Counted from the first letter of the stretch, positions 1,493 to 58,883 are shown. The stretch is 64,000 bases of DNA from an uncultured Gemmatimonadales bacterium (GCA_963751925.1 CAVVWJ010000002.1:1702560-1766559), one strand, 5' to 3'. A program made the numbers and translations. The notes: generated by a model from the sequence alone, not told the origin.

Positions 1493-2410
1493 CTATAGTT
1501 GATAGTACCGCAGCACTCCTTTCGCCGGCATTCCTGACACCAGCATCGCCGTAGAAAACGCATCCGCTTCGATGCCGGTGGCGGCAACGACCGTTGCCTG
1601 CTTGAGAGCATCTGCCGGCCAGCCTGTCTCAGGATTCATCACGTGCCCGCGAACCGCCCTGTCGTAGCGAACCACAGACTCCGTATTGGCCGACGTCGCC
1701 AGGGCGGCGTCTCGAAGCCGGGTAGACGATATCCGGCGCGTGCCCCCTTTCGGCTCGGCAATCTCCACCAGCCAGCCATCATGACCTGGGGGAGCTCCCA
1801 GGGCGATACAGTCACCGCTGATGTCGAGAAATGCCCGCCTGATCCCGTGCGCTCTCAAAACAGCGGCCGCCCGATCCAATCCGTAGCCGACTCCAATTCC
1901 ACCTAGATCCAGCCGAGTGTGGGCAGACGGAAGCGCTGCCCGGTCGCTCGCGAGCTCTACCCGCGCCGCCTGCACCGACGCGCGAGCCTCGGAGATCTCC
2001 GCCGGCGTCGGCTCCGACCTGCGGGGCTGACGAAAACCCCAGACCCGCATCAAGGGCTCGATCGCTGGATTGAATGCGCCCTGGGTGGCCTGCTCCAGAC
2101 GGAGTCCCGCCGCCAGCACAAAGGTGAGATCCTGGCCCACCCTGATCGCCCGTCGTCCGGCATGGCGATTCAGCTCTACCAGATCGCTGGTCTCGTCGAA
2201 GAGAGAGAGCCGGTGCTCTACCCGCCGGAGCTCCGCCAAGGTCGCTGCCGCAGCCGTCAGGCCCTGGTCGCTGGAGCGGGTGAACAGCTGCAAATGAACC
2301 GGTTGGCCCATGACCCACGACCAGCGTTCCACCAGCTGCTCGTCTCTTCTGGGAAAACGCAGGGCCAGCACGCCGGCGCCCATGCTGCCAATGAACGATC
2401 GACGGTTCAC
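1493..2410 (-). CDS. apbE: FAD:protein FMN transferase ApbE (Tat-exported)
   Basis: Motifs LDLGGIGVGYGLDRAA and SGDCIALG are typical of ApbE. Start set to GTG 2410 (VNRRSFIGSMGAGVLAL twin-arginine signal), which overlaps the upstream stop (GTGA). The 2411-2596 ORF extension was rejected. Confidence 0.8.
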   Translation of the reverse strand: MNRRSFIGSMGAGVLALRFPRRDEQLVERWSWVMGQPVHLQLFTRSSDQGLTAAAATLAELRRVEHRLSLFDETSDLVELNRHAGRRAIRVGQDLTFVLAAGLRLEQATQGAFNPAIEPLMRVWGFRQPRRSEPTPAEISEARASVQAARVELASDRAALPSAHTRLDLGGIGVGYGLDRAAAVLRAHGIRRAFLDISGDCIALGAPPGHDGWLVEIAEPKGGTRRISSTRLRDAALATSANTESVVRYDRAVRGHVMNPETGWPADALKQATVVAATGIEADAFSTAMLVSGMPAKGVLRYYQL

Positions 2411-2910
2411 AGCCGAGGCGCCGTCGTCAGTTCGCGCAGCACGTAAAACGATTGGACATAGAAGGTCACCGCCATGATCCCGCTCGAAAGTCCCAGCAGC
2501 CAGCTGAACCGCGCATCCACGTAGCGCATCAGCCACATCGCTGAGAAAGAGATCAGGATAGCGACGAACGGCTCCACCACCAGCAGCCGACGCCACCGCT
2601 CACCAGGTCTGCTGCAGAGGGCCAATGCCAGGCCGCTGAACACGAAGATCGCCGCCATGCTGAAGAGGTGCGTATGGGTGATAGTCAGCATCTCGGCGTA
2701 TGACTTGGGAAACTGCATTGCAGCATCGGTGGCAGCCGAATCAGCCCCGCGGTATCGTCCGGCCACCCCGGCAGGGGTCATGCTGGTGGTGTGATGGACG
2801 AACAACAGTGAGGTGGTGTAGCCCACCAGCTGAACGATAGTGATCCACCGTCCCACGGCTCTCACCGGCTCCGGCAAGGAGTCCCACGAGATGGGTCGGG
2901 GTGGGGTCAC
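2407..2910 (-). CDS. His-rich integral membrane protein, about 4 TM helices, unknown family
   Basis: Four hydrophobic segments. Paired histidines FVHHTT (TM1) and ITHTHLF (TM2). GTG 2910 overlaps the stop of the FMN-binding gene (GTGA), and its stop overlaps the apbE start. Confidence 0.55.
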   Translation of the reverse strand: MTPPRPISWDSLPEPVRAVGRWITIVQLVGYTTSLLFVHHTTSMTPAGVAGRYRGADSAATDAAMQFPKSYAEMLTITHTHLFSMAAIFVFSGLALALCSRPGERWRRLLVVEPFVAILISFSAMWLMRYVDARFSWLLGLSSGIMAVTFYVQSFYVLRELTTAPRL

Positions 2911-3509
2911 TTGATAGTGCCGGCGCGATGCCACGCCGTGAGATCCGCGAGTGTCTGTCGGACCGCGAGCGTCACCGCATGCGAGCTGATGGTTGCACCC
3001 GAGATGTTCCTGATGTCCTTGCCGACCGCGAGCGGCGCGGTGGAGGTCTTTCCACGGAACTGTTTGCGCCAGGGCTCGTACGCCACTTCTCCGCCGTGCG
3101 GCTCACGATACACCAGGATGTCGATATCCTTGAGCGCATCTGTCGAGTCGATCGCGACGAGGTAGGTGATCGGCTGGTCTTTGCCTTTGACGTTCCGGAC
3201 CCGGGCAAAGCCGAGCAGAGATCCGGCCTTGGAAATCCGGAGCACCGACGCTGTATCGACTTTGACGGTGTCCACCTGAACGCCCGCGCCGAAAATCCTT
3301 CCGATCGACTTGGCTACTTTGTCAGGGGGAGCGGTCTGCGCGGCCAGCGGTGCGAGGGACAACGTAAGAAGTGAGAAAGACAAGAGGTGAGAAGTGACAA
3401 GGCGAGCGTGGCGAGCGCGGAACGCCCGGCACAGCGTAGTCCCCCCAGCCACACAGCGTGAGGGTCGGCTGGCGTCAGACGAATGGAATTTGTCCCTCTC
3501 ACCTCTCAC
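2907..3509 (-). CDS. Secreted FMN-binding domain protein (NqrC/RnfG/NosR-type FMN_bind)
   Basis: C-terminal KDIRNISGATISSHAVT matches the ApbE flavinylation acceptor motif ([DN]xxSGAT[IL]S). Signal-like LLSFSLLTLSLAPLAAQ. Start uncertain (GTG 3509 or GTG about 3452). Confidence 0.7.
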   Translation of the reverse strand: MRGERDKFHSSDASRPSRCVAGGTTLCRAFRARHARLVTSHLLSFSLLTLSLAPLAAQTAPPDKVAKSIGRIFGAGVQVDTVKVDTASVLRISKAGSLLGFARVRNVKGKDQPITYLVAIDSTDALKDIDILVYREPHGGEVAYEPWRKQFRGKTSTAPLAVGKDIRNISGATISSHAVTLAVRQTLADLTAWHRAGTIK

Positions 3510-3540
3510 TTCTACCTCTCACCTTCTTCTCACTCTCACC
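3496..3540. repeat. Pyrimidine-rich tandem CTCTCAC heptad block between the porin stop and the FMN-binding gene
   Basis: ctctcac ctctcac ttctac ctctcac cttcttctcac tctcac. The complementary GTGAGAA/GGTGAGA words recur at 3364-3400. Confidence 0.6.
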
Positions 3541-3543
3541 TGC

Positions 3544-4671
3544 TCAGAACTGATACCCCACACCCAGGCTGGCCACATCCCTTTCGCCCAGTCCGGCACG
3601 GTTCCGTTGAAGCTGGTAATCGCCCTTGAATACCACATTGTAGAGCGGCTTGTAGGTAAGGCCAAATGTGGTGATCCGGCGCGCCAGGGCGTCATCGGCG
3701 ACAACCCCTGCGGGGACGCCGGCCTGAGTATCGTAGTTCTCATAACGGAGAAATGCATTCAGCCGCTGGGACGAAGCCGAGGCCAAGGAGGAGAGCACAT
3801 TGTATGCAGCCTCAACATAGCCGCCGGCAATCCGGCTGCCGACCTGCGTGCCATACGCCGCATTCACCGCCTCAGCATCACTCACGGTGATATTCGCCAG
3901 GACTCCGCGGAACATGAACGGTCCCACATCGTAACGGGCGTCGGCTGAGATGAGTGCGACCGCGTTGGCGAAGGACCCGCTGTCGAGCGCTCCGTCCTGG
4001 TTGGCGCTGCCACCGTACCAGAACGAGCCACCGACCCGGAGGCCCGGGCGAGCCCACTCGATCCGTCCAGTGACGGATGGGTTCGCAAAGCTGGCCTCCT
4101 TCCCCTCCTGCCGCCCACCCCTGATGCCGCTCACGGCGTCGAAACCTGAGGCTTTGAGGCCATTGACCAGGTACACCCGGTAGTTGAGCCCAGAGGAGCC
4201 TGGAATGGCTCCTACGAGACCCACCCCGATGTCACGCCAGGTGGTCGGAATGACGTCGTTGTCGAAGTTGGGCCGGGAGACTCCGTTGAACGTTGGAGGC
4301 TCGTGCACCTCATTCAGGATGCCGACCGGTGCGAGCAGAAGACCGGCACGGAGGGTAAAAGCGGGCGAAAAGGTGTAGTCCAGGTAGGCCTGTTCCAGGG
4401 CGACCTCCCCTCCTCCCTGGCCTCCCTCGACCTTGGTGTCTTCCACCTCGAGCTCGGAGCGGAGCGCCAGGTGCTCGCTGAAGCTATGGGCCACGTACAA
4501 CACGAATCGCTTCACCGTCACCTCACCGGGCGTGTTGGCGCCGGTGGCATTGGTATAGTGGACTTCACCGTACCCACCGATCGAAGTGCTCTCGGTTTCC
4601 TGGGCTAACAGAGATGTGAGTGGGAGGGTCATCAGGGCCAGCAACGGGAACCAACGGGGCCGTAGGCCCAT
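3544..4671 (-). CDS. Outer-membrane porin-like beta-barrel (phosphate-selective porin O/P-like)
   Basis: Signal MGLRPRWFPLLALMTLPLTSLLAQ. Alternating amphipathic strands. C-terminal ...SLGVGYQF with terminal Phe. Confidence 0.6.
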   Translation of the reverse strand: MGLRPRWFPLLALMTLPLTSLLAQETESTSIGGYGEVHYTNATGANTPGEVTVKRFVLYVAHSFSEHLALRSELEVEDTKVEGGQGGGEVALEQAYLDYTFSPAFTLRAGLLLAPVGILNEVHEPPTFNGVSRPNFDNDVIPTTWRDIGVGLVGAIPGSSGLNYRVYLVNGLKASGFDAVSGIRGGRQEGKEASFANPSVTGRIEWARPGLRVGGSFWYGGSANQDGALDSGSFANAVALISADARYDVGPFMFRGVLANITVSDAEAVNAAYGTQVGSRIAGGYVEAAYNVLSSLASASSQRLNAFLRYENYDTQAGVPAGVVADDALARRITTFGLTYKPLYNVVFKGDYQLQRNRAGLGERDVASLGVGYQF

Positions 4672-4694
4672 GGGTACCTTCCAAAAGAACAGAT

Positions 4695-4713
4695 GAGAAT
4701 GATTTTCAATTAA
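4695..4713. promoter_or_regulatory. Candidate Fur box upstream of the porin operon
   Basis: GAGAATGATTTTCAATTAA. This matches 12/19 (13/19 on the other strand) to GATAATGATAATCATTATC. It lies 24-42 nt upstream of the porin start inside a visibly AT-rich divergent intergenic region (4672-4823). Confidence 0.3.
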
Positions 4714-4823
4714 ACCCCTACTAGACTATTCCCAATTAGCACTGGTGTCAACACACCCATCCGCGCATCATTCGACTCTAGGCGCACTTCCGCCCTCTCA
4801 TCAACACCGTAGGCGAGGCTTGC

Positions 4824-5666
4824 ATGGTACAGCTGCCCCTCCGCGAGGTGCGACTCCCCAAGGTCACCGAGCAGTTTTTCGACGGATGGCTCGCTGATAT
4901 CGAAGCCCAACTGTCGCGCCCCGACGCGGACTGGTACCGTCTGGCCCGAGACATCCTGTTCCAGATCCACTTCCCTGGGGCAAAGGGCTATGACGAGCTG
5001 TTGCAGGACCCGACTACCCCCGAAACCTCCAGGGTGGCGCTCCTCTCGCTCGATCCAAGGAACATCACCCTTGAGCCGGAGTATTACGCCGAGGTTGACT
5101 GGGACCGCTACGCGAAGCTGAAGCCGCTCTTGTGGCTGTGGCAGAGCTTCGATCACTCGCCTCTCGGCGCGAGCGTACACCTCGGTATTCGGTTCCGCAG
5201 AATCCTGGCGCGGCACATCTTTGCACGCTGCGGCCGTAACTTCAAATGCTTCCAGTTCGTGGAGTTCTCCTTCGGCTACAATCTGGAAGTCGGCGACGAC
5301 GTCGTGGTCCATCGGTACGTCCTGCTGGATGATCGAGGCGGCATCACCCTCGGCAACCGGGTCAGCATCTCCGACTACGCCAACATCTATAGCCACACCC
5401 ACAGCATCGTGGACCAGAAGGATGTGACGAACGCGCGAACCGTTCTGGAGGACGACGTGCGCATCACCTACCACGCCACGGTCCTCGCGGGTGTACGGGT
5501 CGGCCGAAACGCGATGGTAGGAGCTAACGCGGTCGCCACCAAAGATGTCCGGCCCTACCACGTCAACGTCGGTATCCCGGCCAAATCGATCCGCATCAAG
5601 CCGAACGCACCCCCCGAGGCCTACGTCAGCGAACGGACGGCCCGGCGGGACAACCGGGACGAGTAG
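4824..5666 (+). CDS. Hexapeptide-repeat (left-handed beta-helix) acyl/acetyltransferase
   Basis: C-terminal half has hexapeptide repeats (ITLGNRVSISDYANIY...VRITYHATVLAGVRVGRNAMVGANAVATKDV). N-terminal about 150 aa unassigned. Confidence 0.7.
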   Translation: MVQLPLREVRLPKVTEQFFDGWLADIEAQLSRPDADWYRLARDILFQIHFPGAKGYDELLQDPTTPETSRVALLSLDPRNITLEPEYYAEVDWDRYAKLKPLLWLWQSFDHSPLGASVHLGIRFRRILARHIFARCGRNFKCFQFVEFSFGYNLEVGDDVVVHRYVLLDDRGGITLGNRVSISDYANIYSHTHSIVDQKDVTNARTVLEDDVRITYHATVLAGVRVGRNAMVGANAVATKDVRPYHVNVGIPAKSIRIKPNAPPEAYVSERTARRDNRDE

Positions 5667-5730
5667 ACTGATCCGGCGTCTTCCGCACCCGGCACTCTCC
5701 CCAGCAGCCATTACCGGGGGAGTGCTCGTT

Positions 5731-7980
5731 GTGTGCGTCGCCGTCAGCCGTGTGCTGGCTGACGCCCCCCTGCTCCCGGCGATGGCATTGCTGACTGCCG
5801 GTGCGGTCATCGTGGCACTCGCGCTCCGGAACCCACGGTGGGAGGTCCCCCTTCACGCTCTGGCGGCCGCTCTCCTCGGCATCCTGGCGGGCTGGGCGGC
5901 CAGCCGAGTCTGGTGGCTGGCCCTTGTGGCGGTGGGTGTCGTCGCCGCGACGTTATGGCTGGCCCGGATGGTCTCAGGCGATCGCCTGCGTGAAGCAGAA
6001 GACAAAGCCGAGCGACTCGCGGCACAGGTGGATCGCCGGATCAGCGAGCTCTTCTCACTGCGCGAGCTGAGTTACGTCCTCTCCGAATCGATTCAACTCG
6101 ATCGCATCGTCGAGCAGGTGGTTCGCTATACCTCCCGATTCGTGCCGGCCGATGGCGTCGTCCTGGTGCTCGCCGAGAGTGATGGCCGGGTCCTGCGAGT
6201 CGCTGCCGCCTCGGGAACGCTCGCTCCGCTACTGGGCCAGGTCAGCGAGGCGGCGGATGGGAGCCTGGTGCGAGTGGCGATCGAGCGGGACCGAATCGAG
6301 GTGCAACAGGGAGAGAGCAGTCCGGCCGTTCACCTCATTGCCGGCGTGAGCGTTCGTTCCGCCGCCGTGGCCCCGCTCAAGGCCCAGGGTATCACCATGG
6401 GCGCCCTCGCGCTGGCGGACCGCAACGAGGGCCCCTTTACCACCGAGGACCTCTGGCTCCTCTCAACCGTGGCGACCAATGCGTCGGTCGTCCTGGCCAA
6501 CAGCAGACTTTATGAGATGGTACGCCGGGGTGAAGAGGAGTGGGAGACTGCATTCGACGCACTCACAGAGGGGATCGCGGTGGTGGGAACGAATGGCGCC
6601 GTTCTGCGCGCCAACAAGGCGCTGGCCGGCCTTGCCGGTCTGGCCGAGTCCGACCTGGTAGGCCGGAACTTCTGCCAGACGCTGTTCGGCAGCTCAGAAG
6701 CAGTTTCGAGCCTGATCGAAGCCGCCCATCGTGGCGAACGGACCGTGCCGATGGTGGTCCGGCCCGACGAGAGTCACCAGGTACTCCGTCTCACTGCGGC
6801 GCCGCTGGCTGCGGCAGAACGTGGATCGGTGGTGATCCTGATCGAGGACGTCACCGAGCAGCGCGCGCTGGAGGCGCAGATCATCCAGAGCGACAAGATG
6901 GCATCGATCGGGCAGCTCGTATCCGGTGTCGCTCACGAGCTGAACAACCCGCTCACCTCGATCGCGGGACTATCCGAGCTCCTGCTGGAGCGGCCCCCAC
7001 ACCCGGAGTTCCCCCGGGAGCACCTCCGGGTCATCCACGACCAGGCGGAACGCGCCGGGCGAATCGTTCGAAACCTTCTGACCTTCGCCCGAAAAGGCGT
7101 CGCCGAGAAAACCGCGGTCGACCTCAACGATGTCGTCACCCGCACCTCTCTGCTCATCATGTATGAGCTCCAGCTCCACGGCATCGAGCTGGAATCCGAG
7201 CTCAGCTCTACGCCGCCGATAGTAGTGGGAGACCGATACGAGCTGCAGCAGGTGCTGCTGAACCTGGTGACCAATGCGGTTCAGGCGGTGAGCGGACTAC
7301 CGGCCGATGCGCCGAGGCGTATCACGCTGGCAACCAGCCACGCCGAGGACCGGGCAGTGTTGCTGGTACGGGACAATGGTCCTGGCGTTCCCAGGCATCT
7401 TGCGCCGTACCTGTTCACGCCGTTCTTCACCACCAAGGCGCCAGGTGAAGGTACCGGGCTGGGTCTGTCGGTCAGCTACGGTCTGGTGAAAGCGCACGAC
7501 GGCGATCTCTCGTATGAACCCTCAGCGGAGGGTGGCGCCGAGTTTCGCGTCACGCTCCCACTCTTCAGTGCAGAGCTGGCCGATCTTGTTGATCCGGTCG
7601 CCACCGAGAATGGTGGGCACGACCGGGGCCGAATCCTGGTCGTCGATGAAGACCCCGCGGTCCATCGAATGCTCAGCGCGTTGTTCGCTCCAGACGGCTA
7701 TCAGGTAGAGACGGTTCAGAGCGGTGAGCAGGCGCTGAAAATGGCGAGTGAGCGTGAGTACGATTTGATCATCGCGGACCGTCGGATGGGGGCAGGAGCA
7801 ACCGACCGGTTTACCCAGGTCCTGCTGAATTCCTGTCCCCACGTCCGCGATCGGCTGGTGGTAGCCTGCTCCCGAGACGAGGCCCTCTCCGCTGCGTCAG
7901 ACCAGCCGGCGGTCCGCACCGTGACCAAGCCGTTCAACCTGAGAGATCTGAGGTCGGTAGCGGGGGAAATTCTTCAGTAG
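5731..7980 (+). CDS. Hybrid sensor histidine kinase (TM, GAF-like, PAS, HisKA, HATPase, REC)
   Basis: H-box SGVAHELNNPLTSI; N box LVTNAVQA; G boxes DNGPGVP and GTGLGLS. C-terminal receiver ILVVDEDP...DLIIADRRM...TKPF. Start uncertain (GTG 5731 preceded by GGGGGAG; alternatives 5722 and 5782). Confidence 0.8.
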   Translation: MCVAVSRVLADAPLLPAMALLTAGAVIVALALRNPRWEVPLHALAAALLGILAGWAASRVWWLALVAVGVVAATLWLARMVSGDRLREAEDKAERLAAQVDRRISELFSLRELSYVLSESIQLDRIVEQVVRYTSRFVPADGVVLVLAESDGRVLRVAAASGTLAPLLGQVSEAADGSLVRVAIERDRIEVQQGESSPAVHLIAGVSVRSAAVAPLKAQGITMGALALADRNEGPFTTEDLWLLSTVATNASVVLANSRLYEMVRRGEEEWETAFDALTEGIAVVGTNGAVLRANKALAGLAGLAESDLVGRNFCQTLFGSSEAVSSLIEAAHRGERTVPMVVRPDESHQVLRLTAAPLAAAERGSVVILIEDVTEQRALEAQIIQSDKMASIGQLVSGVAHELNNPLTSIAGLSELLLERPPHPEFPREHLRVIHDQAERAGRIVRNLLTFARKGVAEKTAVDLNDVVTRTSLLIMYELQLHGIELESELSSTPPIVVGDRYELQQVLLNLVTNAVQAVSGLPADAPRRITLATSHAEDRAVLLVRDNGPGVPRHLAPYLFTPFFTTKAPGEGTGLGLSVSYGLVKAHDGDLSYEPSAEGGAEFRVTLPLFSAELADLVDPVATENGGHDRGRILVVDEDPAVHRMLSALFAPDGYQVETVQSGEQALKMASEREYDLIIADRRMGAGATDRFTQVLLNSCPHVRDRLVVACSRDEALSAASDQPAVRTVTKPFNLRDLRSVAGEILQ

Positions 7981-9401
7981 CCAGCGGCACTGGCTGGCTT
8001 CCACGGCAGAACGCTGATGCGTCCTCTCACCTTTGCGGTCGCTCCCGATGCATCGGCCGTGGCCCAATAATTCCCGCCGGCAGCAAGGTCAGGCGCATCG
8101 ATGAACCATCGCCTGACCCGAAGAAAGATGTTTCCCGTGACTTCACTGGAGTGCCCGGCACCGTCCAGCACCAATCCGTCCCCAACCCCGTCGAAAAGAT
8201 TGCCGCGCAGCTGAGCGCGTGAGGTTCGCTGCAGGACGATGCCCTGGTCCAGCCTCGAGAGTACGTTGTCATCGATGCGATAGCGCCGGCTCGAGTCGCT
8301 GGTCTGTTCGGTGCCGATGCGTATGCCTACCGGCCCGCCCATCAGCACGTTGGCCAGAATGGCGTTGTCGGTGCCGTAGTCGCTCAGGATTCCCCCACCG
8401 CGAGCCCCGATGACCGTGTTCGCGCGAAGGGTACTGCCGCCCGAGTGATCCAGCCGGAATCCAACACCGGCGCTGTCGGCCCGGTTCTCGAGAAAGGTGT
8501 TTCCCCATCCATTGACCACCGTGAACCCGGCGCGGAGCGCTGAGGACGCGTCGTTTCGGAAGACCAGATTGCCGACTGAGGGCTGGACCAGCGGCCGGTC
8601 TCCAGAAAGGAGAAAACCGAGACTCGACTCCCGGAAATTATTATCGACGATGGTATTCGAGTCGCTGGCATCGCGGAGCAGGAGCGCGGCGGCGCCGCAA
8701 TCGGCTGCCGGAACCTGTGCATCGCAGCGGCGGGTATGATCGACCCGGTTTCGCGCGATGGTATTGCCATCCGAGCGCCAGAGCTGGATCCCCCAGCCGT
8801 TGTTGAATGCCACATCGTTATCGGCGATATAGCTGTCTCGCACCTCGAATAGAGCAATGCCGTTCTGGGCTCCGCGCGCAGTCACTCCAGTTATCGTGGC
8901 AGCGACGGTGCGCTGCAGTAGGATTCCGCCGCCGTATCGCTCGAAAACGTCCGATCGCTCCAGGTCTAGACGGTCAGTGGGATCGGGATGGGCCGGGGTC
9001 GAGCGAACTCCCTGACTTCGGCTGCCGGACAGATCGGTGCCAACGACCCGGTGCGCCCTTCCGCCTTCGATCCGCACTCCGTAGCGATACCCGTGGATTC
9101 CTCCTCCGGTGATGGTCACCGCGTCGACACCCCTACTCGCCACACCCACACCTACAAACTGCCCCGGAATCGAATCGCCACTCTCTAGTACCACCCCCGT
9201 GAGGTCGATGTGAGTTCCAGATGCGGCGGCGATGATGACGCCTTGTTCCGAACGGTCCGCGATGCGATACCGTCCGGGGCAGACCCGCACCTCCCCTTGC
9301 ACCTGAGTCGCGGCCCGGGTGGGTCGGATGCAGGGCGCCAGCGCATAGGGGTGTCCAGCGGGAGTCAGCAGGATCGAGAAGATGAAAGGCTGGAGGATCA
9401 T
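7974..9401 (-). CDS. Secreted right-handed parallel beta-helix repeat protein (NosD/CASH-like)
   Basis: Signal-like N-terminus. Many repeats of about 22 aa ([49 protein letters not shown]). Start overlaps the hisF stop. Confidence 0.6.
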
Positions 9402-10150
9402 GGCCGAACCGGATAACCCCGCTCCCGAAGGTAGGCGCGGGCCCGAGGGAGTGATGAATCGTTGAAGTGAAAGATCGTCGCGGCCAGGACTCCATGCGCT
9501 CCCGCCTCGAACGCCTCAGCCAGATGCGCGAGGTTCCCCGCGCCACCCGAGGCTATCACCGGAATGCGAACGGCGTGAGACACCTGCCGCAGCAGCGGAA
9601 GATCATATCCCTCTCCGGTCCCATCGCGATCCATAGACGTCAGCAGAATTTCACCAGCACCGAGTTGCTCCAGCCGAGCGCTCCACTCCACCGCGTCCAA
9701 CCCGGTCTCCTCGCGGCCACCGTTCACCATGACCACGAAGCGACGATCGACTCGTCTGACGTCGACCGCCGCGACCACACACTGGGTGCCGAAGCTTTCT
9801 GCCAGACGAGAGACGAGCGCCGGATCGCGCACGGGCGCCGTGTTCACCGCGATCTTGTCCGCCCCGGCCCGGAGGGCCGCACCGGCATCGGCGACCGAGC
9901 GGATTCCGCCGCCCACGGTGAAGGGAATGAAGATCGACTCGGCGACCCGGCTGACCATCTCGAGTGTGGTCTGACGAGCCTCGGGGCTCGCCGAGATGTC
10001 CAGGAACACCAACTCGTCGGCGCCATCGGCATCGTAACGCCTGGCCTGTTCGACCGGATCGCCCGCGTCCCGCAGGGTCTCGAAATGAATGCCTTTGACT
10101 ACCCGGCCGCCGGCCACGTCGAGACAGGGAATGATCCGGCGGGCTAGCAT
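9398..10150 (-). CDS. hisF: Imidazole glycerol phosphate synthase, cyclase subunit HisF
   Basis: [20 protein letters not shown]..., VIASGGAG. Full-length (250 aa). Confidence 0.95.
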
Positions 10151-10611
10151 ACCCTCAGGACGTCATCGACCCTGCCGGCGTTTCCTTCGCCCAGCAGGAT
10201 TACGATGTCCTCCAGGGCCCGGCGCTCGCGCGGCCAGGCAAACCTCCCGTTTGCGGCGGTGGCTGAGAGCCACTCGAACTGGTCGTGCTCGGGTCCCAAC
10301 CGAACCAGCGCGTTCGGATCGACAAAGACTGCAAAGACCGGGACCAGGGCCACCTCGTCGAGCCGATGCTGATAGAACAGCTCGACCCGGCTCACGTTGT
10401 ACAGGTGAAGGGCCTCGAGACCCGTCTCCTCCTGCAGCTCACGGACAGCAGCCTCCGCGGGTAATTCCTCGGCCTCGATGTGTCCGTGCACACTCTCCCA
10501 TGATCCCGGGCACCGGCCTCCACCCGCGCGTCGAAGCACCAGACACTCGAGCTCTGGTGCCGCACTGCGAAGGACGTACACGTCCACCAACGAGACCCGG
10601 ACGGTCGTCAT
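10144..10611 (-). CDS. NUDIX hydrolase (NudB-like)
   Basis: Complete Nudix box [23 protein letters not shown] (Gx5Ex7REUxEExGU). Overlaps the hisH stop (4 nt) and the hisF start (7 nt). Confidence 0.8.
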
Positions 10612-11228
10612 GGCTGCCAGTTGGCGAATGCTCCCAGCAGGTCGATGCCGGCCTGCTGGGACTTTTCGGGATGGAACTGCGCACCCACAACCGAGCCGTA
10701 CCCGACGAAGCTTGGGAAGACGCCGCCGTAATCACCAGTACCCAGCACGGCTGAATCGGGCAGAGAACTGGGGTGGTAGCTATGCACGTGGTAGAAGTAC
10801 TGAGCCGGCTCCTTGAACGCTGCCCCTAGGAGGCTGTGGCTCCGTCCCGACTCGGTCAGGTCGACCCTTGCCCATCCCACGTGAGGGATCGGCAGATCGA
10901 CGCTGAACCGGCGAACTCGGCCGGGAAGTAGCGCCAGCCCTCTCGCCTCAGGGGCCTCCTCGCTGTGCTCGAAAAAGAGCTGCAGGCCCAGACAGATCCC
11001 CATCACCGGCCGGCCCGCTTTGGCCGCCTCCCGGACGGCGTCTCCGAGACCGCTCGTCGCCAGGTTGCGTGAGGCTTGTCCAAAGTTCCCGACGCCCGGC
11101 ATCAACACCCGATCGGCCCGCCGAACCTCGTCGGGATCATCGGTCAAGTGCGCCTGATGTCCGCCCGCGGCCAGAGCCCGAACGACGCTCGCGAGGTTAT
11201 TGACCCCGTAGTCCACCACCGCGATCAC
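10608..11228 (-). CDS. hisH: Imidazole glycerol phosphate synthase, glutaminase subunit HisH
   Basis: VIAVVDYGVNNLASV..., PGVGNFG, GICLGLQLF (catalytic Cys), YFYHVHSY. Start set to GTG 11228, which overlaps the hisB stop (GTGA). Confidence 0.9.
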   Translation of the reverse strand: MIAVVDYGVNNLASVVRALAAGGHQAHLTDDPDEVRRADRVLMPGVGNFGQASRNLATSGLGDAVREAAKAGRPVMGICLGLQLFFEHSEEAPEARGLALLPGRVRRFSVDLPIPHVGWARVDLTESGRSHSLLGAAFKEPAQYFYHVHSYHPSSLPDSAVLGTGDYGGVFPSFVGYGSVVGAQFHPEKSQQAGIDLLGAFANWQP

Positions 11229-11815
11229 AGTGCACCCTTGGTGGACGGGATACCGCTGACCCTCGGGTCGAGCATTGTCGCCATGTCGAGCGCGCGCGCG
11301 AACGACTTGAACGCTGCCTCGACAATGTGGTGCGGATTGTCGCCTCGGACGAGATCGAGGTGAACGGTGAGTCCCGCGTTGAGCACGACCGCTCGAAAGA
11401 ACTCCGGCGTGAGGAACACGTCGTACTCCCCCAGCATCTGCCACTTCGGGATATCGATATTGTACGAGAGGAAGGGACGTCCGGAAACATCCACCACGCA
11501 CCGTACCAGAGCCTCATCCAGCGGAACCATGGCGTCGGCATAGCGACGGATTCCGGCTCGGTCTCCCAATGCCTGGGCGATTGCCTGGCCCAGAACGATG
11601 CCGGTGTCCTCCACGGTATGATGCCCGTCCACGTGGAGATCACCCCGTGCTTCGACGTTCAAATCCATGAGGCTATGCCGAGCCAGGGCCTCCAGCATGT
11701 GATCGAAGAAGCCGATGCCGGTCATCACGCGGGCATCGCCTCGTCCGTCCAGGTCCAGCCGGACATGGAGGTCGGTTTCTTTGGTCGTTCGCGAGATTTC
11801 GGCCCGGCGGGTCAT
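11225..11815 (-). CDS. hisB: Imidazoleglycerol-phosphate dehydratase HisB
   Basis: ISRTTKETDLHVRLDLDG, DGHHTVEDTGI, GDNPHHIVEAAFKSFARAL. Start ATG 11815 overlaps the hisC stop (ATGA). Confidence 0.9.
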   Translation of the reverse strand: MTRRAEISRTTKETDLHVRLDLDGRGDARVMTGIGFFDHMLEALARHSLMDLNVEARGDLHVDGHHTVEDTGIVLGQAIAQALGDRAGIRRYADAMVPLDEALVRCVVDVSGRPFLSYNIDIPKWQMLGEYDVFLTPEFFRAVVLNAGLTVHLDLVRGDNPHHIVEAAFKSFARALDMATMLDPRVSGIPSTKGAL

Positions 11816-12974
11816 TTCGTAATCTGCTGCAGTGCCTCGATCACCGCATCCATATCTTCCCCGGTCCCGACCGAGATCCGCAGGCATTGCGCCAGCTCGG
11901 GTGAGCCGGAGACATCACGCACCAGGATGCCGTGTTCGTTGAGAAGTCGCTGAAACAGGTCCTTAGCAGGCAGCTCGCGAGATCGAATGAGCACGAAGTT
12001 GGCGGCGGTCGGGTACACGACAAGGCCGGATATCATCCGCAGGCGGGGGAGGAATCGCTCTCGCACCGAAATCACCTCCCGAGTCCGTTCCTCGAGCAGA
12101 GAGGCATGGCGCAGGGCGGTACGTGCGGCAGCAAGCGTCACCAGATTCACATTGTAGGGAAGCTTGGCTTTGGCGATCTCGCGGGCGACACCCGGGTTGG
12201 CCAGAGCCAGTCCGAACCGGAGCCCCGCCAAACCGAGCGCCTTGGAAAAGGTACGCAGCACCACCAGCCGGGACCAACGACCCAGGAGAGGAATGGCCGT
12301 TGGCCCGCCGAAATCCTGGTAGGCCTCGTCGCAGATCACCAGTGCCTCGGTCTCGGTGAGAACCCGCTCGACGTCTCCCTCGGCCAGAGCCGAACCGGTC
12401 GGATTATTGGGCGAGTTGAGGACGATCACCCGGGCACCTTCCCGCCGAGCTGTGTAGATCAGCTGATCGACGTCGAATACAAAATTTTTCCCCAGCGGCA
12501 CCGGCAGGTACACACCACCGAGGACGGACGTCAACAAGCGGTACAGAGAAAAGGTAGGTGACGGCGCCACCACCCGATCGCCCGCACCCAGTGTCACCGC
12601 CAGAGAGGCCTGGATCAGCTCGTTAGAGCCGTTCCCGACCAGTACTCCATCGGGTCTCCAGCCGTAATAGTCCGCCAGCGCAACGATCAGATCCTGCGGT
12701 GTGAACTCCGGATAGCGCTGCCACTCCGAACGGGAACACTGCTCCAGGACCTCGCGCTTCAGCTCTGCAGGAAAGTCGTAAGGGCTCTCATTCTGATTGA
12801 GCTTGTGTCGTGCAGAAAGGGCCGCGAGGCTGTAGCCCGGCTGGGCCCGTACCGATGGCTTGATCAGCGCGAGGCCCTCGGCGGAACGCAGCGGATCAGC
12901 CGCTGGGCCGGTGACTTTCTCGATGGAAGGGCCGGCGGGTTGAGCGGGAGATTGCGGCGGAGTTGGCTGCCGGG

Positions 12975-12978
<4 letters not shown>
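11812..12978 (-). CDS. hisC: Histidinol-phosphate aminotransferase HisC
   Basis: Class-II aminotransferase: LNQNESPYDFP, NSPNNPTG, TFSKALGLAGLRFG (PLP Lys). TTG 12978 overlaps the upstream stop. The true start may be further downstream. Confidence 0.85.
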
Positions 12979-15200
<2,222 letters not shown>

Positions 15201-15273
15201 GTAAACTCTGAGAAGATGACAGGAAATGAGAAGGTCGGACGGCCGGGGGAGAGCCGCCCGAAAGATAAGAAGG

Positions 15274-17359
15274 TTACAGCAGGCCCCACCAGTCCCGATT
15301 TACATCGACCGTCATCCCCACACCGCCGTCCCGAAGGCCGACGCCCAGTTCCAGCCGGATGAGACGCATGAACAGCTCCAGCGCCACGCCAGCCACCGGC
15401 CGTACACCTGCAGTTCGGCTCCAGGGGAGGCCGATGTAGGCCCGGGAGGCCAGACCCGCCGCGAGGAAAGGAGCGATGGTAACCGACCTGCCGGTGGAGG
15501 CGAAGGAGCCCAGGGCGAGGGCCGGCACAGGAACGTCAAACCGCCACTCGACATGCCCGAGCACCGCCGTACGCCCGCCATAGGCCCGGAACGGCTCCCC
15601 CGGTAAGGTCCCCCTGCCTCCGAGCACGAAGCTCCGATATGGCGGGAGGTGATCGGTTCCGCCACCAGCATAGACCCTCGACAGGAGCTCGCCTTTGCCC
15701 AGATTCACCAACCAGCGTGCCTCCGCGCTCCCACGCAGGTAATCCCCCGGCCCAACGCCACCCTCGACCGAGAGGCGGCCCTGCAAATCCCGTCGGGCAG
15801 CGATTCCGCCGCTGGCCCGCTCGAGAGTCAGGCGGGCGATTCGATACGTGCCTGAGCCCAGTGCCGGATTCGTGCGATAGTTGCCGTTCGCGGGCGACGC
15901 CTTGGTCGAGACCGACTGACTCTCCTCCAGGTTGAGGTCTAGCATAACCGCAGTACGCCCGCTGAGCCGCTGGCGCAGACCCGCACCGGCAGTATGAAGC
16001 AGGACATAGTCCCCGTAGTCTTTCCCGGCCTCCTGTGATGTGAGCGAATTCAGCACGGGCGCAATCACCGGCAAGTCACTGAAGTCGGATACCCGCCGGG
16101 AAGCGCTCAGGCTCAGACTGTGTCCGTCCGGTTCCCCAGCTCGCCGTTGCCGAGCCCACCAGACGGTGGTCTGCCGTACCATAGCCGATCGATGGCTTGA
16201 GCTGGAAACGGCTGCCCTTCGGGTTGAGGGTCCCACCGAAGCCAAGCGTCAGTCCCTGCACCCGGTTGACGTGCGCCAGGTCGCTGACCGACCCCGCAGC
16301 CAGCCGGGTTGATGGAAGCCCCGCGAGTGCGCGCGAGCCGGCGATCCGTTCGACCTCGGCTCGAAGCGCCTCCATGTCTTGTCGGTTGATCGGCTGGGCG
16401 ACGCCGAGAATAGCGCGATCGAGTGACTGCGCCCAGGTTGTATCCGACTTTCCAGCCTGGAGCAGGCCACCGATCGATGGTCCTTGAAAAACGTCCGGTG
16501 AAATCGGGAAATTCAAATCATAGTCGCCGATTTCCCAACGGCACCGGATGATGCCCCTGGCAGGGAAGTCGAGCCAGGTGAGCCGGCGGCGGATTTCAAT
16601 CTCCTGACGGTACGGCAGCCAGTACCGATTCTCGTAGAGTGCGTTCTCGAGCACGATACTGATGTCCTCGAGCTCACGGTCCAGGTACGATGCTGGGGTA
16701 AAGCTGAACCGGAAACGGACCAGCTCCGCCGTTGTGACATCGAGATACAGCGTACCGACAACCAGTGGTCGGCTGAACGAACGCGGCCTGACCTGAACCT
16801 GACGTACCGTGACCTCGCCCTGCGCGGTGCGGATCGCGAGTGAGTCGCCCAGGGCATAGTCGTAGCTTGCCGCTCCGCCCGGTGAGAGTGGATGGATAGC
16901 ATCGCGCACTTCGTCACCCTCGCCGATGCGAATGATGTCGCCGAAGTTGTTGGTGACGATACCGAGGTGATCGCGGTGGTATTGGATGTCGGTGGGGAGA
17001 AAGGTGCCGTCGCGCCAGCCGAGAATGATCTGCTTGCTCCGGTTGGGGGCGCGCCAATACACTTCCACGTCGAGCTGGTCCGCTTTCACCAGCCGCGGAG
17101 GCTCGGCCATTCCCTCCCCTACCTGGGCCAGGAAGAAGACGAAGCCATGGGCCCGGGTCCGGTAGCTCTTCAGTGCCGAATCCGCCTGAGTTGCCAGGCG
17201 CCGGTCCACTGCGCGTTGCACCAGGGCCAGCGCGTCGGGGGTATTCCACCGCTGGGCGGAGGCAGGTGAGACCAACGAGACGAGCAGGACACCGGCAATC
17301 ACCGCACCAAGCGGCCAGTTCACCTGGAGCTTTTGACGTGCCCCATTCTCAGCGCTCAC
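15274..17359 (-). pseudogene. Secreted protein with Omp85/surface-antigen-like C-terminal beta-barrel, split by an apparent +1 frameshift
   Basis: ORF 16076-17359 has signal LLVSLVSPASAQ. ORF 15274-16245 continues the beta-strand pattern to ...GVGMTVDVNRDWWGLL*. Both frames are open over 16076-16245. A C4/G4 run at 16134-16137 is the likely shift site. Confidence 0.45.
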
Positions 17360-17379
17360 GGCCCACCTCGCGACACGTC

Positions 17380-17976
17380 ATGCGCGCAATATTCGGAAGA
17401 AGGAGCCGCAGGACAACCTGGCGGTGGATTGCGGCAGGCACGGTTCTGGGGTGCGGAGGCCGTCACCCGGTGGCGGAGGCTGCGCCCGGCGTAAACGTGT
17501 CGCGGGTACTCCCACTGGCGCAGCTTCTGGTCCTGGCGACCTCGGGGCCGCAGCCGGGCGACACGTCGGTCACATTCACCACAGGATCGCAGCGTGTCAT
17601 TGTACTTCGCCATGGTCCACCGGGGAATGTGGTGTTCGCGGAGATCACATTTGGAGGTCGTAGCTTCGGCGACAGCGGCCGCTCGGTCCAGGTGGACATC
17701 CGCCCCCGGCCGGGGGTCTATGGATTCGATCTCACCAGCAGCATCCCGTTCGGACAAGGAGCCACGGTAGCCTTCCGCTATGCGCGCTATTTCTCGGCAC
17801 CGCCTCGTGCTCGCGAGGTTTACGGAAGTGATATCGCATTCGAGCGGGCCCTGGCCGTAGGCCGACTCCAGTCAGACGATCAGGTCCTGCTACTGCCGTC
17901 CACTCGGCCCGCCTCCGACAATCTCCAGGCAGCGATACCATCAGCCGGCAGCTACCTGGTCGCTGCGCCGCAGTGA
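17380..17976 (+). CDS. Hypothetical lipoprotein
   Basis: MRAIFGRRSRRTTWRWIAAGTVLGCGG (lipobox-like VLGC). Its stop overlaps the trpE GTG (GTGA). The longer 17173 start overlaps the upstream divergent gene and was rejected. Confidence 0.45.
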   Translation: MRAIFGRRSRRTTWRWIAAGTVLGCGGRHPVAEAAPGVNVSRVLPLAQLLVLATSGPQPGDTSVTFTTGSQRVIVLRHGPPGNVVFAEITFGGRSFGDSGRSVQVDIRPRPGVYGFDLTSSIPFGQGATVAFRYARYFSAPPRAREVYGSDIAFERALAVGRLQSDDQVLLLPSTRPASDNLQAAIPSAGSYLVAAPQ

Positions 17977-19478
17977 GCTCGACCTTCGAAAGCTTCGTTG
18001 AGCGCGCACAGGCGGGCGGCATGGTGCCAGTCACCCGTCAGGTCGTGCTGGACGGTGACACCCCCGTCACCGCCTTCACCAAGCTGCACCAGGGCTCCTA
18101 CGGTTTCTTGTTGGAATCGCTCGAAGGCGGTGAGCGCTGGGCCCGCTACACCTTTCTGGCCACAGATCCTCGTGAGGTGTTCCGCTATCGGGGGCGCGAG
18201 TGTGCCCGCTGGACCGAAAAGACCGGCTGGAAGGTCATCGAGACCGATGTCGCCCCGCTGGAGCACCTCGGACGGACGATGCGGCGGCACCCACCGGTCG
18301 AGGTTCCAGGCCTACCCCGGTTCACCGGTGGCGCCGTCGGCTATCTAGGATACGATGTCGTACGAACGATCGAGTCGCTTCCCAATGCCCCACCCGACGA
18401 CCGAGATCTCCCCGACGCGATTCTCATGGTGGCCGATACTCTGCTGGTTCTGGACAACCTCTTCAACCGTGCCACCGTCATCGCCAATGTAGAAGTTCCG
18501 GCGGGCGCGAGCCGGAAAAGCCTTCAGTATCTGTTTCAGGAGGCGGAGACCAGGATTGAGCGCTGGCTCGAGCGCCTGGCCAGACCGGCCACCAGTCCGC
18601 CGCTCGATCTCGAGCCGTTGCCACCGCTACCGACACCGTCGTGTACCTATCCCGATCACCGCTTTCAGGAAGATGTCGGTCGCATCAAAGAGTACATTGC
18701 GGCGGGAGACACCTTTCAGACGGTGCTCTCGCGCCGGCTCGACTTGGCGGCCCCAGACCCTTTTCTCACCTACCGCTATCTCCGGGCCCTGAATCCGGCA
18801 CCGTACCTGTACTTTCTCCACTGCGACGACATCCATGTCATCGGCAGCTCTCCGGAAGTACTGGTTCGCGTGGAAGAAGGCGAGATTACCCTGCGTCCGA
18901 TTGCCGGCACCCGTCCTCGCGGGCTCACCACGGAGCAGGATGCGGCACTGGCGGAAGAGCTGTCGGCCGATCCCAAGGAGCGGGCGGAGCATCTGATGCT
19001 GGTTGACCTTGGCCGGAACGATGTCGGACGAGTCGCGGCGTTTGGGTCGGTCCATCTGACCGCGTTCATGGCCATCGAGCGGTACTCGCATGTCATGCAC
19101 CTCGTGAGCGAAGTGCGGGGTCGCTTGCGCCCAGAACTGGATGCAATGGCTGCGCTCGGCGCATGCTTTCCCGCTGGAACGGTGTCGGGGGCACCCAAGG
19201 TTCGCGCGATGCAGATCATCGATGAATTGGAGCCGGTGAGGCGGGGGCCGTACGCCGGAGCCGTGGGGTACGTCGGCTTTGGGGCCCGTACGCTCGACGC
19301 GGCAATCGCGATCCGGACCTGCGTCATGAAGGGGGGCCGAGCCTGGATTCAGGCGGGTGCCGGGATCGTGGCGGACTCGGACCCGGCGTCGGAGTGGCGC
19401 GAGACAGAGGCCAAAGCTCGTGCCGTGCTCCTAGCGTTGGCCCTGGCGGAAAGGGCGGGAAAGGCGGCAAAGCACTAG
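17973..19478 (+). CDS. trpE: Anthranilate synthase component I TrpE
   Basis: LLESLEGGERWARYTF feedback motif, chorismate-binding core GTRPRG...LMLVDLGRNDVGR...GAVGYVGF...IQAGAGIVADSDP. Confidence 0.9.
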   Translation: MSSTFESFVERAQAGGMVPVTRQVVLDGDTPVTAFTKLHQGSYGFLLESLEGGERWARYTFLATDPREVFRYRGRECARWTEKTGWKVIETDVAPLEHLGRTMRRHPPVEVPGLPRFTGGAVGYLGYDVVRTIESLPNAPPDDRDLPDAILMVADTLLVLDNLFNRATVIANVEVPAGASRKSLQYLFQEAETRIERWLERLARPATSPPLDLEPLPPLPTPSCTYPDHRFQEDVGRIKEYIAAGDTFQTVLSRRLDLAAPDPFLTYRYLRALNPAPYLYFLHCDDIHVIGSSPEVLVRVEEGEITLRPIAGTRPRGLTTEQDAALAEELSADPKERAEHLMLVDLGRNDVGRVAAFGSVHLTAFMAIERYSHVMHLVSEVRGRLRPELDAMAALGACFPAGTVSGAPKVRAMQIIDELEPVRRGPYAGAVGYVGFGARTLDAAIAIRTCVMKGGRAWIQAGAGIVADSDPASEWRETEAKARAVLLALALAERAGKAAKH

Positions 19479-19510
19479 CTTCCTGCCCTTCCCGACATTC
19501 CCGACCCTTC
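19445..19510. terminator. Imperfect GGGAAAGG / CCTTCCC hairpin spanning the trpE stop codon
   Basis: ggcggaaagggcgggaaaggcggcaaagc-ACTA-gcttcctgcccttcccgacattcccgacccttcc. Arms are built from direct repeats of 9-10 nt. TAG lies in the loop. Confidence 0.4.
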
Positions 19511-19523
19511 CGATATTCACCTT

Positions 19524-58094: not shown

Positions 58095-58883
58095 ATGAGC
58101 GTTTCTCACCTGGTGCCCCGGAGGCCCCTACCCTTCTCACTGTCCGAGCAGGGCAAGCGAGGTGCTTCGGGATCGAGGTTCCTGATAATCATGGTGTTGC
58201 TTGGCTCTCTTGTGTCAACCGCCTCAGCCCAGGTGGGCCATCCACCAGGACGTTCGCCCTATCGCGACATTCGGAAGGGACACACCTTCACTGTGTTGGG
58301 CGGCTACTTCTCGGGTGGAGGCGGCGATTTCGGCATCGGCCCTCATAGCGGCAGCATCTTCGGGGCTCGCTACGACATCCGGACCGCGAGCGCGCTCCAG
58401 ATCGGTCTCGGATTCGCCCACGCCGGACTGGAGCGATTCATAGTGGATCCCTTCGTCGCGCTGGCCAACCGGAAGACCGGCCCGGTGGACCAGACCGTGA
58501 ACTTTGCGGAGCTTACTCTGCAGATGAATGTTACTGGTGGCAAGAGCTGGCACAGGATCGCTCCATTTTTCGGCGGAAATGTCGGGCTCGCGTTTGCAAC
58601 CAGCACACCGGGCGACACTAGCGGGTACAAGTTTGGTCGCAAGTTTTACGTCGCGCCGGCGCTGGGAACCCGGGTCTTCATCACGGACCGGCTGCATCTC
58701 CGGGCTGAAGCTCGCGCCACCTTCTGGAAGCTGAACTATCCCACGACCTTCCAGCAGGAACCTCCCCTGGAGCCAGGGAATGGCACCACGTCAAACGCGG
58801 TGATTCCTCCTCCTGGCAAGCTGGCCGAATGGACCACCTCCTCCTGGCTCCAGATAGGTCTGGGTTACTCGTTCTCACCCTGA
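58095..58883 (+). CDS. Outer-membrane beta-barrel protein, unknown family
   Basis: Signal ...LLGSLVSTASAQ. Alternating strands. C-terminal WLQIGLGYSFSP. Confidence 0.5.
   Translation: MSVSHLVPRRPLPFSLSEQGKRGASGSRFLIIMVLLGSLVSTASAQVGHPPGRSPYRDIRKGHTFTVLGGYFSGGGGDFGIGPHSGSIFGARYDIRTASALQIGLGFAHAGLERFIVDPFVALANRKTGPVDQTVNFAELTLQMNVTGGKSWHRIAPFFGGNVGLAFATSTPGDTSGYKFGRKFYVAPALGTRVFITDRLHLRAEARATFWKLNYPTTFQQEPPLEPGNGTTSNAVIPPPGKLAEWTTSSWLQIGLGYSFSP

Follow-up and report, generated by a model that had tools for sequence, protein, structure and literature searches.

A conserved four-gene cassette of a porin-like barrel, an FMN_bind protein, a PF27139 membrane protein and ApbE preceded by a Fur-type operator in Gemmatimonadota

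Results

A four-gene cassette and its conservation

We analyzed a stretch of 64,000 nucleotides from the genome of an uncultured Gemmatimonadales bacterium (GCA_963751925.1 CAVVWJ010000002.1:1702560-1766559), hereafter the window, whose minus strand carries between positions 1493 and 4671 four co-directional genes that read as one unit. They encode a porin-like barrel, a protein with a flavin mononucleotide (FMN)-binding FMN_bind domain, an inner-membrane protein with four transmembrane helices (4-TM protein) of Pfam family PF27139, and an ApbE-type flavin transferase with a twin-arginine translocation (Tat) signal (Table 1). The first-pass annotation of the window had described these genes, and they can be read directly from the sequence together with the two GTGA stop/start overlaps, at 2907-2910 and 2407-2410, that join the FMN_bind, 4-TM and ApbE genes. 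The four genes are predicted to form a single transcription unit in which the last three are translationally coupled. As set out below, the cassette is widely conserved and previously undescribed.

To follow the cassette across relatives, we scanned one genome per species and found 262 genomes with a close relative; loci were taken from the best 80 of these 262, all of which belong to Gemmatimonadota. Among the Gemmatimonadales loci with enough flanking sequence, the four genes were present in 67/67 and were contiguous and in the same order in 66/67. A more distant sample came from the contigs of 11 homologs, ten of them with 22-38% identity in the 4-TM protein, which gave 15 loci in 10 distinct contexts. 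The order porin, FMN_bind, 4-TM, ApbE recurs there in loci L093 and L095 and, with one extra gene, in L092, at 22-28% 4-TM identity, and the trio of porin, FMN_bind and 4-TM genes is found in L002, L006, L089 and L091 and, rearranged, in L007. In the distant loci, the barrel gene has thus been conserved together with those for FMN_bind and the 4-TM protein. Synteny of the four genes, proposed from the outset as a check on the module, is strong, including in relatives whose 4-TM protein is 22-30% identical. In L003 (259-1962) and L004, the start of the FMN_bind gene lies within a gene for a DtxR-family repressor, which has Fe_dep_repr_C and FeoA domains; after FMN_bind comes the PF27139 gene, and exbB and exbD lie directly downstream on the other strand, with no porin or ApbE in the cassette. 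The FMN_bind gene adjoins the 4-TM gene in all nine informative distant contexts (9/9), usually with a stop/start overlap, and this arrangement therefore argues for a stoichiometric complex of the two proteins.

Several other genes were seen beside the distant cassettes. A gene for an EamA-type transporter adjoins the 4-TM gene in L002 and L091; rhodanese genes, or genes combining metallo-beta-lactamase and rhodanese, lie near the cassette in L006 and L091, and a metallo-beta-lactamase gene also occurs in L126, a metagenomic locus described below. A thioredoxin-like protein (AhpC-TSA/Redoxin) is encoded upstream of the cassette in L002 and L092. In L092 the gene between the 4-TM gene and ApbE encodes a membrane protein with a NusG_II domain, and in L093 hemA-hemCD-hemB are transcribed divergently from the cassette.

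The profile searches that the first-pass annotation had called for placed both flavin-related proteins above the family cut-offs: the FMN_bind protein matches PF04205 (E 2.6e-9, 38.1 bits vs. a cut-off of 22), and the last gene encodes an FAD:protein FMN transferase of the ApbE type (PF02424, E 1.1e-61, 209.1 vs. 25.6 bits, covering positions 1-249 of 266 in the profile). ApbE flavinylates the acceptor threonine of FMN_bind domains in NqrC and RnfG. The acceptor motif for this modification had been reported on the FMN_bind protein, and we found it as DIRNISGATISS at 2982-3017, which reads D165-IRNIS-GAT173-ISS and would make Thr173 (codon 2991-2993) the acceptor. Its D, G-A-T and S are invariant in eight cassette partners of 21-75% identity, so that the motif, in the conserved form DIxxISGATIS, is retained down to 21% identity. 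The FMN_bind protein is signal-anchored or secreted. ApbE begins with VNRRSFIG, and the Tat N-terminus first noticed as NRRSFIG is present as N2-RRSFIG-8 at 2387-2407 on the minus strand; the motif RRxF[LIV] is kept in 77/81 orthologous loci, and ApbE is predicted to be extracytosolic through this signal. A twin-arginine motif is ordinary for some ApbE/NosX proteins.

The FMN_bind fold and the acceptor threonine in S-G-A-T are common to the window protein and RnfG/NqrC, but the RnfG and NqrC profiles match it weakly, far below their cut-offs (32.8 vs. 205, 28.4 vs. 102 and 13.4 vs. 144 bits). No other Rnf or Nqr subunit was found among the genes examined (119-21137), where the neighbors are unrelated housekeeping and signaling genes. 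On these scores and neighbors we rejected membership in an Rnf or Nqr complex.

The first gene was called a porin-like barrel in the first-pass annotation, a description that holds at the level of fold and not of sequence family. No Pfam model scores above its threshold, the nearest being BBP2 (PF07642, 18.1 vs. 26.2 bits) and Porin_O_P (PF07396, 14.7 vs. 20.9 bits), and none of the listed homologs carries a precomputed Pfam domain. The AlphaFold2 model has 16 strands at a predicted local distance difference test (pLDDT) value of 62.9, a moderate confidence because the protein was modeled with only close homologs in its alignment. Foldseek matches the model to OmpF, OmpC and Omp32 (E ~3e-10, TM-score 0.5-0.6). 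An N-terminal signal peptide ends in ...LLAQ and the C-terminus is ...GVGYQF, of which ...GYQF, including the terminal phenylalanine, is invariant in the homolog alignment. With a fold-level match, a signal peptide and a C-terminal aromatic residue, the protein resembles OmpF/OmpC/Omp32 and Porin_O_P without belonging to a family, and the model supports its placement as an outer-membrane porin of 16 strands by fold class. The model fails to place the most conserved segments (residues 116-147 and 171-196, with HEPP...IPTTW and GIRGGRQEGKEA), which are loops. On the first strands, conserved glutamates and histidines occupy alternating positions (E36/H38, E73/E75/E77, E89/E93) and probably face the lumen.

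The membrane component and an analogous cassette

The 4-TM protein, which had not been recognized as a member of any named family, belongs to the uncharacterized Pfam family PF27139 ('Aq_1264_TM'), named after Aquifex; the assignment is precomputed for the exact protein and for all its listed matches. The family comprises 294 clusters at 50% identity (E up to 1e-3) and about 2,000 at 90%, its members are annotated as 'hypothetical' in the sources, and we found no mention of aq_1264 or PF27139 in the literature. None of the homologs was found on a plasmid. An AlphaFold model of high confidence (pLDDT 94.8) shows four long helices and a short helix in the first loop. It has no relative in the PDB by sequence or by fold: the best sequence-profile match has an E of 0.76, and the fold search returned only generic four-helix bundles at E of at least 0.7. 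Natural fusions of the 4-TM protein were considered as a clue to function and discarded, as the longer matches are frameshifted or read-through gene calls.

In the first-pass annotation, the histidine pairs of this protein, VHHTT in the first transmembrane helix (TM1) and THTH in TM2, were taken to fit a bis-histidine site for heme b or a metal. This suggestion did not withstand comparison with the family. Across 61 diverse PF27139 members, only H79 (2674-2676) and H81 (2668-2670), the T-H-x-H on TM2, are invariant; the TM1 histidine is kept in 23% of them, E113 in 45/61 and K69 in 44/61. An intramolecular bis-histidine heme site formed by HH and H-x-H was rejected on the lack of conservation of the TM1 pair; moreover, a heme cannot be clamped within a monomer by histidines that stand only two residues from each other on a single helix, so the suggestion loses its basis. 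A cofactor may instead be held at the interface of a 4-TM dimer. The loop between TM2 and TM3 is strongly basic and should be cytoplasmic by the positive-inside rule, and the H-x-H is therefore predicted near the periplasmic end of TM2. Neither Pfam nor fold searches matched the protein to the heme-b conduits of the MsrQ, PepSY_TM, DUF4405 or cytochrome b561 types. Its sole Pfam similarity, below threshold, is to the MHYT repeat (E 0.0011), which we take to be a putative metal-binding membrane domain. PF27139 also includes a divergent subgroup (L094, 328-1412; P0237/P0248), whose members share the motif W-T-H-I-H and are extended at the N-terminus by a long acidic stretch; in L094, a short contig, the PF27139 gene comes after a DUF6488 gene and not after an FMN_bind gene.

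A cassette of analogous design occupies positions 1-3051 of L126 (metagenomic contig ERZ650310 NODE-3018). Two to three Fur-type boxes are followed there by genes for a 304-residue DUF6662-like outer-membrane barrel, an FMN_bind protein 46% identical to that of the window, ApbE and a 148-residue 4-TM protein, so that both loci have a box, a barrel, FMN_bind, ApbE and a 4-TM protein in common. The L126 4-TM protein is not homologous to PF27139. It carries His54/His72 and His118/His132, two on each of two helices, which we read as the classical di-heme pattern of a cytochrome b. This indicates, by analogy, that the membrane slot of this type of cassette is filled by an electron-input device, and the PF27139 protein would then be the electron-input partner of the flavoprotein. 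Because PF27139 has no such transmembrane histidine pattern, it may not conduct electrons through the membrane but act at its periplasmic face, where it could for example oxidize quinol.

Promoter and operator

Upstream of the porin gene lie a conserved promoter and a palindromic operator (Table 1). In relatives, this region reads TTGACA, 17 nucleotides, TAnnnT, and then TTGA(A/T/G)AA(T/C)nATTCTCAA(CTAG), with TAAAGT as the -10 hexamer in most of them. A simple sigma-70 consensus scan misses the window's own promoter, whose -10 hexamer is too weak, and the promoter call rests on conservation for this reason. Counted from the predicted transcription start, the operator lies at about +8 to +23, and it occupies the positions 22-38 nucleotides 5' of the ATG.

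The first-pass annotation had pointed to an AT-rich, Fur-like 19-mer here, and the site proved real and phylogenetically conserved; the operator core extends one base beyond the interval then given. Against the Escherichia coli Fur consensus, the 19-mer scores 13/19 when read on the minus strand and 12/19 when read on the plus strand; no other 40-mer of the window is as rich in AT (72.5%) as the one that contains it. Among the ~128,000 window positions tested, two score at least 13/19 to that consensus. A direct comparison of the operator with the 7-1-7 form TGATAATnATTATCA gave 12/14 matches. With a criterion of at least 11 matches to a 15-position consensus, the 17-nucleotide operator is kept in 66/72 orthologous Gemmatimonadales upstream regions, and random 360-nucleotide segments of the same loci reach this score essentially only where they overlap the operator. 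Some relatives carry the perfect palindrome TTGAGAACGGTTCTCAA at this place, and L022 has ATTAATGATAATCATTATC, which matches the E. coli Fur consensus at 17/19. A position weight matrix of the operator scores 30.1 bits at the operator and finds no other hit of at least 10 bits in the 64-kb window, so that the site is the only high-scoring operator within the window; the first-pass annotation had suggested a comparison with background across the genome. The only other 13/19 match to the Fur consensus, GTTCCTGATAATCATGGTG at 58178-58196, falls within the 5' part of the open reading frame 58095-58883, does not match the operator matrix and probably arose by chance.

We rejected an FNR/CRP-type site on spacing, TTGA-N9-TCAA in the operator vs. 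TTGAT-N4-ATCAA. The half-site TGA..AAT of the operator keeps the G and A by which Fur boxes differ from PerR (TTATAAT) and Zur (TCGTAAT) boxes. No described Fur box for Gemmatimonadota was found in the literature. Among the distant loci, L092 (33% GC) has the palindrome TGAGACTTAATCTCA at 4864-4878, just 5' of its first cassette gene (DUF6686), which agrees with the core of the Gemmatimonadales operator at 12/14 positions and is the only such match in ~75 kb of distant loci.

No known iron gene is present among the 10 flanking genes scanned (5545-21137) and no second operator site in the 64-kb window. Because the window offered no second site, we searched metagenomes for the perfect palindrome TTGAGAATNATTCTCAA and ran Pfam on the 20 genes directly downstream of the sites found. 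In these metagenomes the perfect palindrome TTGAGAATnATTCTCAA lies 5' of feoAB (FeoA/FeoB), of a gene for a TonB-dependent receptor and of one for a siderophore-interacting (SIP) ferric reductase. Three SBP_bac_6 binding proteins, the family of the Fe3+-type FbpA/AfuA/FutA, two metal-binding proteins of the ZnuA family and a cytochrome c peroxidase are also encoded next to it, as are a glutamate synthase and NrdD. Genes of the feoAB, TonB-dependent receptor, SIP and SBP_bac_6 kinds form the most frequent category among the 20. This enrichment of iron genes next to the palindrome is as expected of a Fur-type box. Two or three of the palindrome-associated genes could belong to other metal regulons.

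Other features of the locus

The spacer between the porin and FMN_bind genes varies by lineage. A predicted hairpin of ~200 nucleotides within 3346-3543, with a minimum free energy of -107.7 kcal/mol and a z of -4.1, joins its tandem purine-rich GTGAGAGG-type repeats to the pyrimidine-rich coding region of the signal peptide (3346-3400). L001 and L015, the closest relatives, are alone in having repeats of this type, in longer arrays made of GTGAGAGGTAAGAGG; elsewhere the same spacer holds different hairpin-forming inserts (L011, L027, L034), an insert of ~2.4 kb (L048) or none. The GTGAGAGG hairpin was considered as a regulatory element and rejected, since it is not conserved past the closest relatives. 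Small repeat elements appear to have a hot spot in this spacer. No Rfam family, FMN riboswitch included, was found in the operon region at E up to 1.

The operon is surrounded by genes for a divergent hexapeptide acetyltransferase, a convergent protein without known function, EngB, a hybrid histidine kinase and histidine biosynthesis, none of which has a visible relation to the four operon genes. At 7974-9401, on the minus strand, the window encodes a NosD-like periplasmic protein with a right-handed beta-helix (PF05048, E 3.4e-31). No other nos genes were found among the nearby genes examined, and the NosD-like gene adjoins the hybrid histidine kinase gene in L001 as well.

Table 1. Genes and regulatory features of the cassette, in positions of the window
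Feature	Position	Strand	Remarks
-35 hexamer, TTGACA	4746-4751	minus	TTGAC invariant and last A at least 90% in 20 aligned orthologous upstream regions
-10 hexamer, TAGTCT	4723-4728	minus	17 nt past the -35 hexamer; T, A and final T invariant in the alignment
Fur-type palindromic operator, TTGAAAATCATTCTCAT	4693-4709	minus	Core TGAAAATCATTCTCA at 4694-4708
Ribosome-binding site, GGAAGG	4677-4682	minus	5 nt 5' of ATG; read from the sequence
Porin-like barrel gene	3544-4671	minus	375 aa; identical product in public protein collection
Variable spacer, lineage-specific, with purine-rich GTGAGAGG-type repeats	3510-3543	minus	Found by repeat and inverted-repeat search
FMN_bind gene	2907-3509	minus	200 aa, as called by public gene callers; product in the collection
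Alternative FMN_bind start	GTG at 3452	minus	Would give 181 aa
4-TM inner-membrane protein gene	2407-2910	minus	167 aa; start overlaps the FMN_bind stop
Tat-ApbE gene	1493-2410	minus	305 aa; product in the collection; start overlaps the 4-TM stop

Discussion

Earlier work ties proteins flavinylated by ApbE to the reduction of iron in the periplasm and, in the case of PepSY-like clusters, to repression by Fur (Meheust, 2021; PMC8238504). The membrane apparatuses known to serve them are NapH-, MsrQ-, PepSY-, DsbD- and Nqr/Rnf-like, with DUF4405/FezC cytochromes added later (PMC8238504; PMC11334425). New cytochrome-type membrane partners are still emerging (Huang, 2024; PMC11334425), and the membrane partner supplying the flavinylated proteins has yet to be named in thousands of genomes (PMC8238504). 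Among the systems of PMC8238504, a term search found neither porins nor beta-barrels nor Gemmatimonadetes, and a 2025 review of ApbE does not mention porins.

Of the overall picture in the first-pass annotation, an iron-responsive periplasmic flavin redox module, the module itself, its synteny, its operator and a membrane protein without a named function have all been borne out; the heme argument has not. The computational checks that the annotation had proposed as possible refutations all came out on the side of its reading. The reading we favor, at about even odds, is that the operon encodes a periplasmic flavin reductase repressed by a Fur-family protein. Its substrate, entering through the porin, would most likely be ferric iron, and the PF27139 protein would link the FMN, bound covalently, to the electron pool of the membrane. 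When the metal co-repressor, putatively iron, is plentiful, a Fur-type dimer would sit on the operator TTGAAAATCATTCTCAT, just 3' of the -10 hexamer, and block transcription. Derepression would yield one mRNA and from it four proteins, the last three coupled in translation through their overlapping genes. The 16-strand porin, a fold that the model supports, would let the substrate into the periplasm. ApbE would be exported folded through the Tat pathway and, to judge from what it does in NqrC and RnfG, move FMN from FAD onto Thr173, for which both proteins carry the motifs. The flavoprotein would be retained on the outer side of the inner membrane and form a complex there with Aq_1264_TM, the 4-TM protein. 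This protein would most likely pass electrons to the FMN from the quinol pool or from a cofactor at its dimer interface, and the reduced flavin would in turn convert Fe(III) to Fe(II).

A wider claim can be advanced only tentatively, as we think it somewhat more likely to be wrong than right: that the cassette is a new Fur-controlled iron route of the FCB group (possibly also of Aquifex), in which the porin admits ferric species, the covalently flavinylated protein reduces them, and PF27139 is a quinol:flavoprotein coupler, possibly heme-free. If true, PF27139 would be a further type beside the five older kinds of apparatus named above.

Several observations weigh against the ferric reductase. 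The operon encodes no ferrous-iron transporter, and a transmembrane heme conduit would have a histidine pattern that is missing from the 4-TM protein. With no known iron gene among the flanking genes scanned, the operator has no calibration within its own genome; the perfect-palindrome loci that link it to iron are metagenomic contigs without known taxonomy; and there is no convincing Fur box beside most of the low-GC distant cassettes. The regulator could be another paralog of the Fur family. Lastly, some distant loci have sulfur- or thiol-related neighbors (rhodanese, metallo-beta-lactamase/rhodanese and thioredoxin-like proteins).

Part of this evidence would also suit other explanations. 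One is that the module spares iron, replacing a heme- or Fe-S-dependent periplasmic carrier under iron limitation, much as flavodoxin replaces ferredoxin, and serves a reductase or repair system unrelated to iron uptake. Fur-type control is indeed the only direct link of the cassette to iron, the operon is without an iron transporter, and a 4-TM protein with no conserved pattern of heme ligands could make the whole system iron-free; the exchange of flavins for cytochromes is, in addition, a documented theme (PMC8238504). However, a dedicated outer-membrane channel that is co-conserved with the redox proteins points to an imported substrate and not to a swap of carriers, and L003 couples the FMN_bind/4-TM pair to a DtxR-type repressor and to ExbBD, that is, to uptake machinery, and we consider iron sparing unlikely. 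We regard as similarly unlikely that iron is not involved at all, the regulator being a Fur-family paralog of the Zur, Mur or PerR type, or an unrelated protein, and the porin admitting some other substrate such as a sulfur species, another metal or an oxidized periplasmic target. The two ZnuA-family genes behind the palindrome, whose products can be specific for Zn or Mn, and the cytochrome c peroxidase would agree with it, as would the scarcity of clear Fur boxes at the distant low-GC cassettes and the recurrence in distant loci of rhodanese, persulfide-dioxygenase-like and thioredoxin-like neighbors. Against it, the half-site TGA..AAT retains the G and A that distinguish Fur from PerR and Zur boxes, L022 comes within two positions of the classical Fur consensus (17/19) at the same place, the operator spacing is unlike that of FNR/CRP, and iron-uptake genes are the commonest category among the 20 genes examined behind the palindrome.

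Two further explanations concern single components. The 4-TM protein might be a small permease for ferrous iron or another metal, with His79/His81, Glu73 and the intramembrane Glu113 as ligands, and the flavoprotein be fed by an unlinked donor. An H-x-H with conserved glutamates is typical of metal ligands, the sub-threshold similarity to the MHYT repeat points the same way, and a permease would account for the absence of a separate Fe2+ transporter from the operon. Only two residues of the family are invariant, however (E113 being kept in 45/61 and K69 in 44/61 members), the protein resembles no known transporter fold, and L126 puts a cytochrome-b-like protein, not a transporter, in the same slot, all of which makes a permease quite improbable. 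The barrel, for its part, could be imagined to sheathe the flavoprotein, as in MtrAB, and conduct electrons out to extracellular minerals, and it is strictly co-conserved with a periplasmic redox protein. An FMN_bind domain, however, does not fit into so narrow a barrel, which has 16 strands and the size of OmpF; MtrB-type sheaths have ~26. The flavoprotein is, moreover, translationally coupled to the inner-membrane protein and not to the porin, and we give such a conduit very little credence.

Compared with systems already described, the ferric reductase that we favor would combine familiar and unfamiliar parts. The PepSY-like, MsrQ-like and DUF4405 systems, like the window, bring together in one cluster ApbE, an extracytosolic flavinylated FMN_bind protein and a small membrane protein. 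In those systems, however, the membrane part is a heme-b protein with histidine pairs on different helices, whereas the window has the unrelated PF27139 with T-H-x-H only. L126 differs from the window in its barrel, which is DUF6662-like, and in its non-homologous 4-TM protein with a di-heme-type pattern. The flavin-based extracellular electron transfer system of Listeria consists of FmnB/PplA, EetA/EetB, Ndh2 and DmkA. As in the window, an ApbE-type transferase and a flavinylated surface protein are accompanied by small membrane proteins (PMC9973259). The latter have no obvious cofactor and connect the quinone pool to flavin, with ferric iron as acceptor. The Listeria system, in contrast, is that of a Gram-positive bacterium, includes a dedicated NADH dehydrogenase as well as genes for quinone synthesis, and lacks an outer-membrane channel, and its membrane proteins have no detectable homology to that of the window. 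PepSY-like clusters also differ at the outer membrane: where the window has a dedicated, co-conserved porin, they have a TonB-related gene instead (PF03544, in 231 PepSY-like clusters; PMC8238504). Known, then, are the logic of flavinylation and the tie to iron and Fur; new are the membrane family, the co-conserved porin and a defined operator in Gemmatimonadota.

Beyond the cytoplasm, proteins flavinylated by ApbE are emerging as an electron-transfer counterpart to cytochromes. The cassette extends this known theme and offers the field of extracytosolic electron transfer a clean, testable system: a compact and strongly conserved test case with a new partner family that has two invariant histidines and with a dedicated outer-membrane channel. 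Its regulatory handle suggests iron starvation as the condition under which its function should be sought. For Gemmatimonadota, an abundant and little-studied phylum of soils, the operator would be the first defined Fur-type operator and the cassette the first defined member of the regulon.

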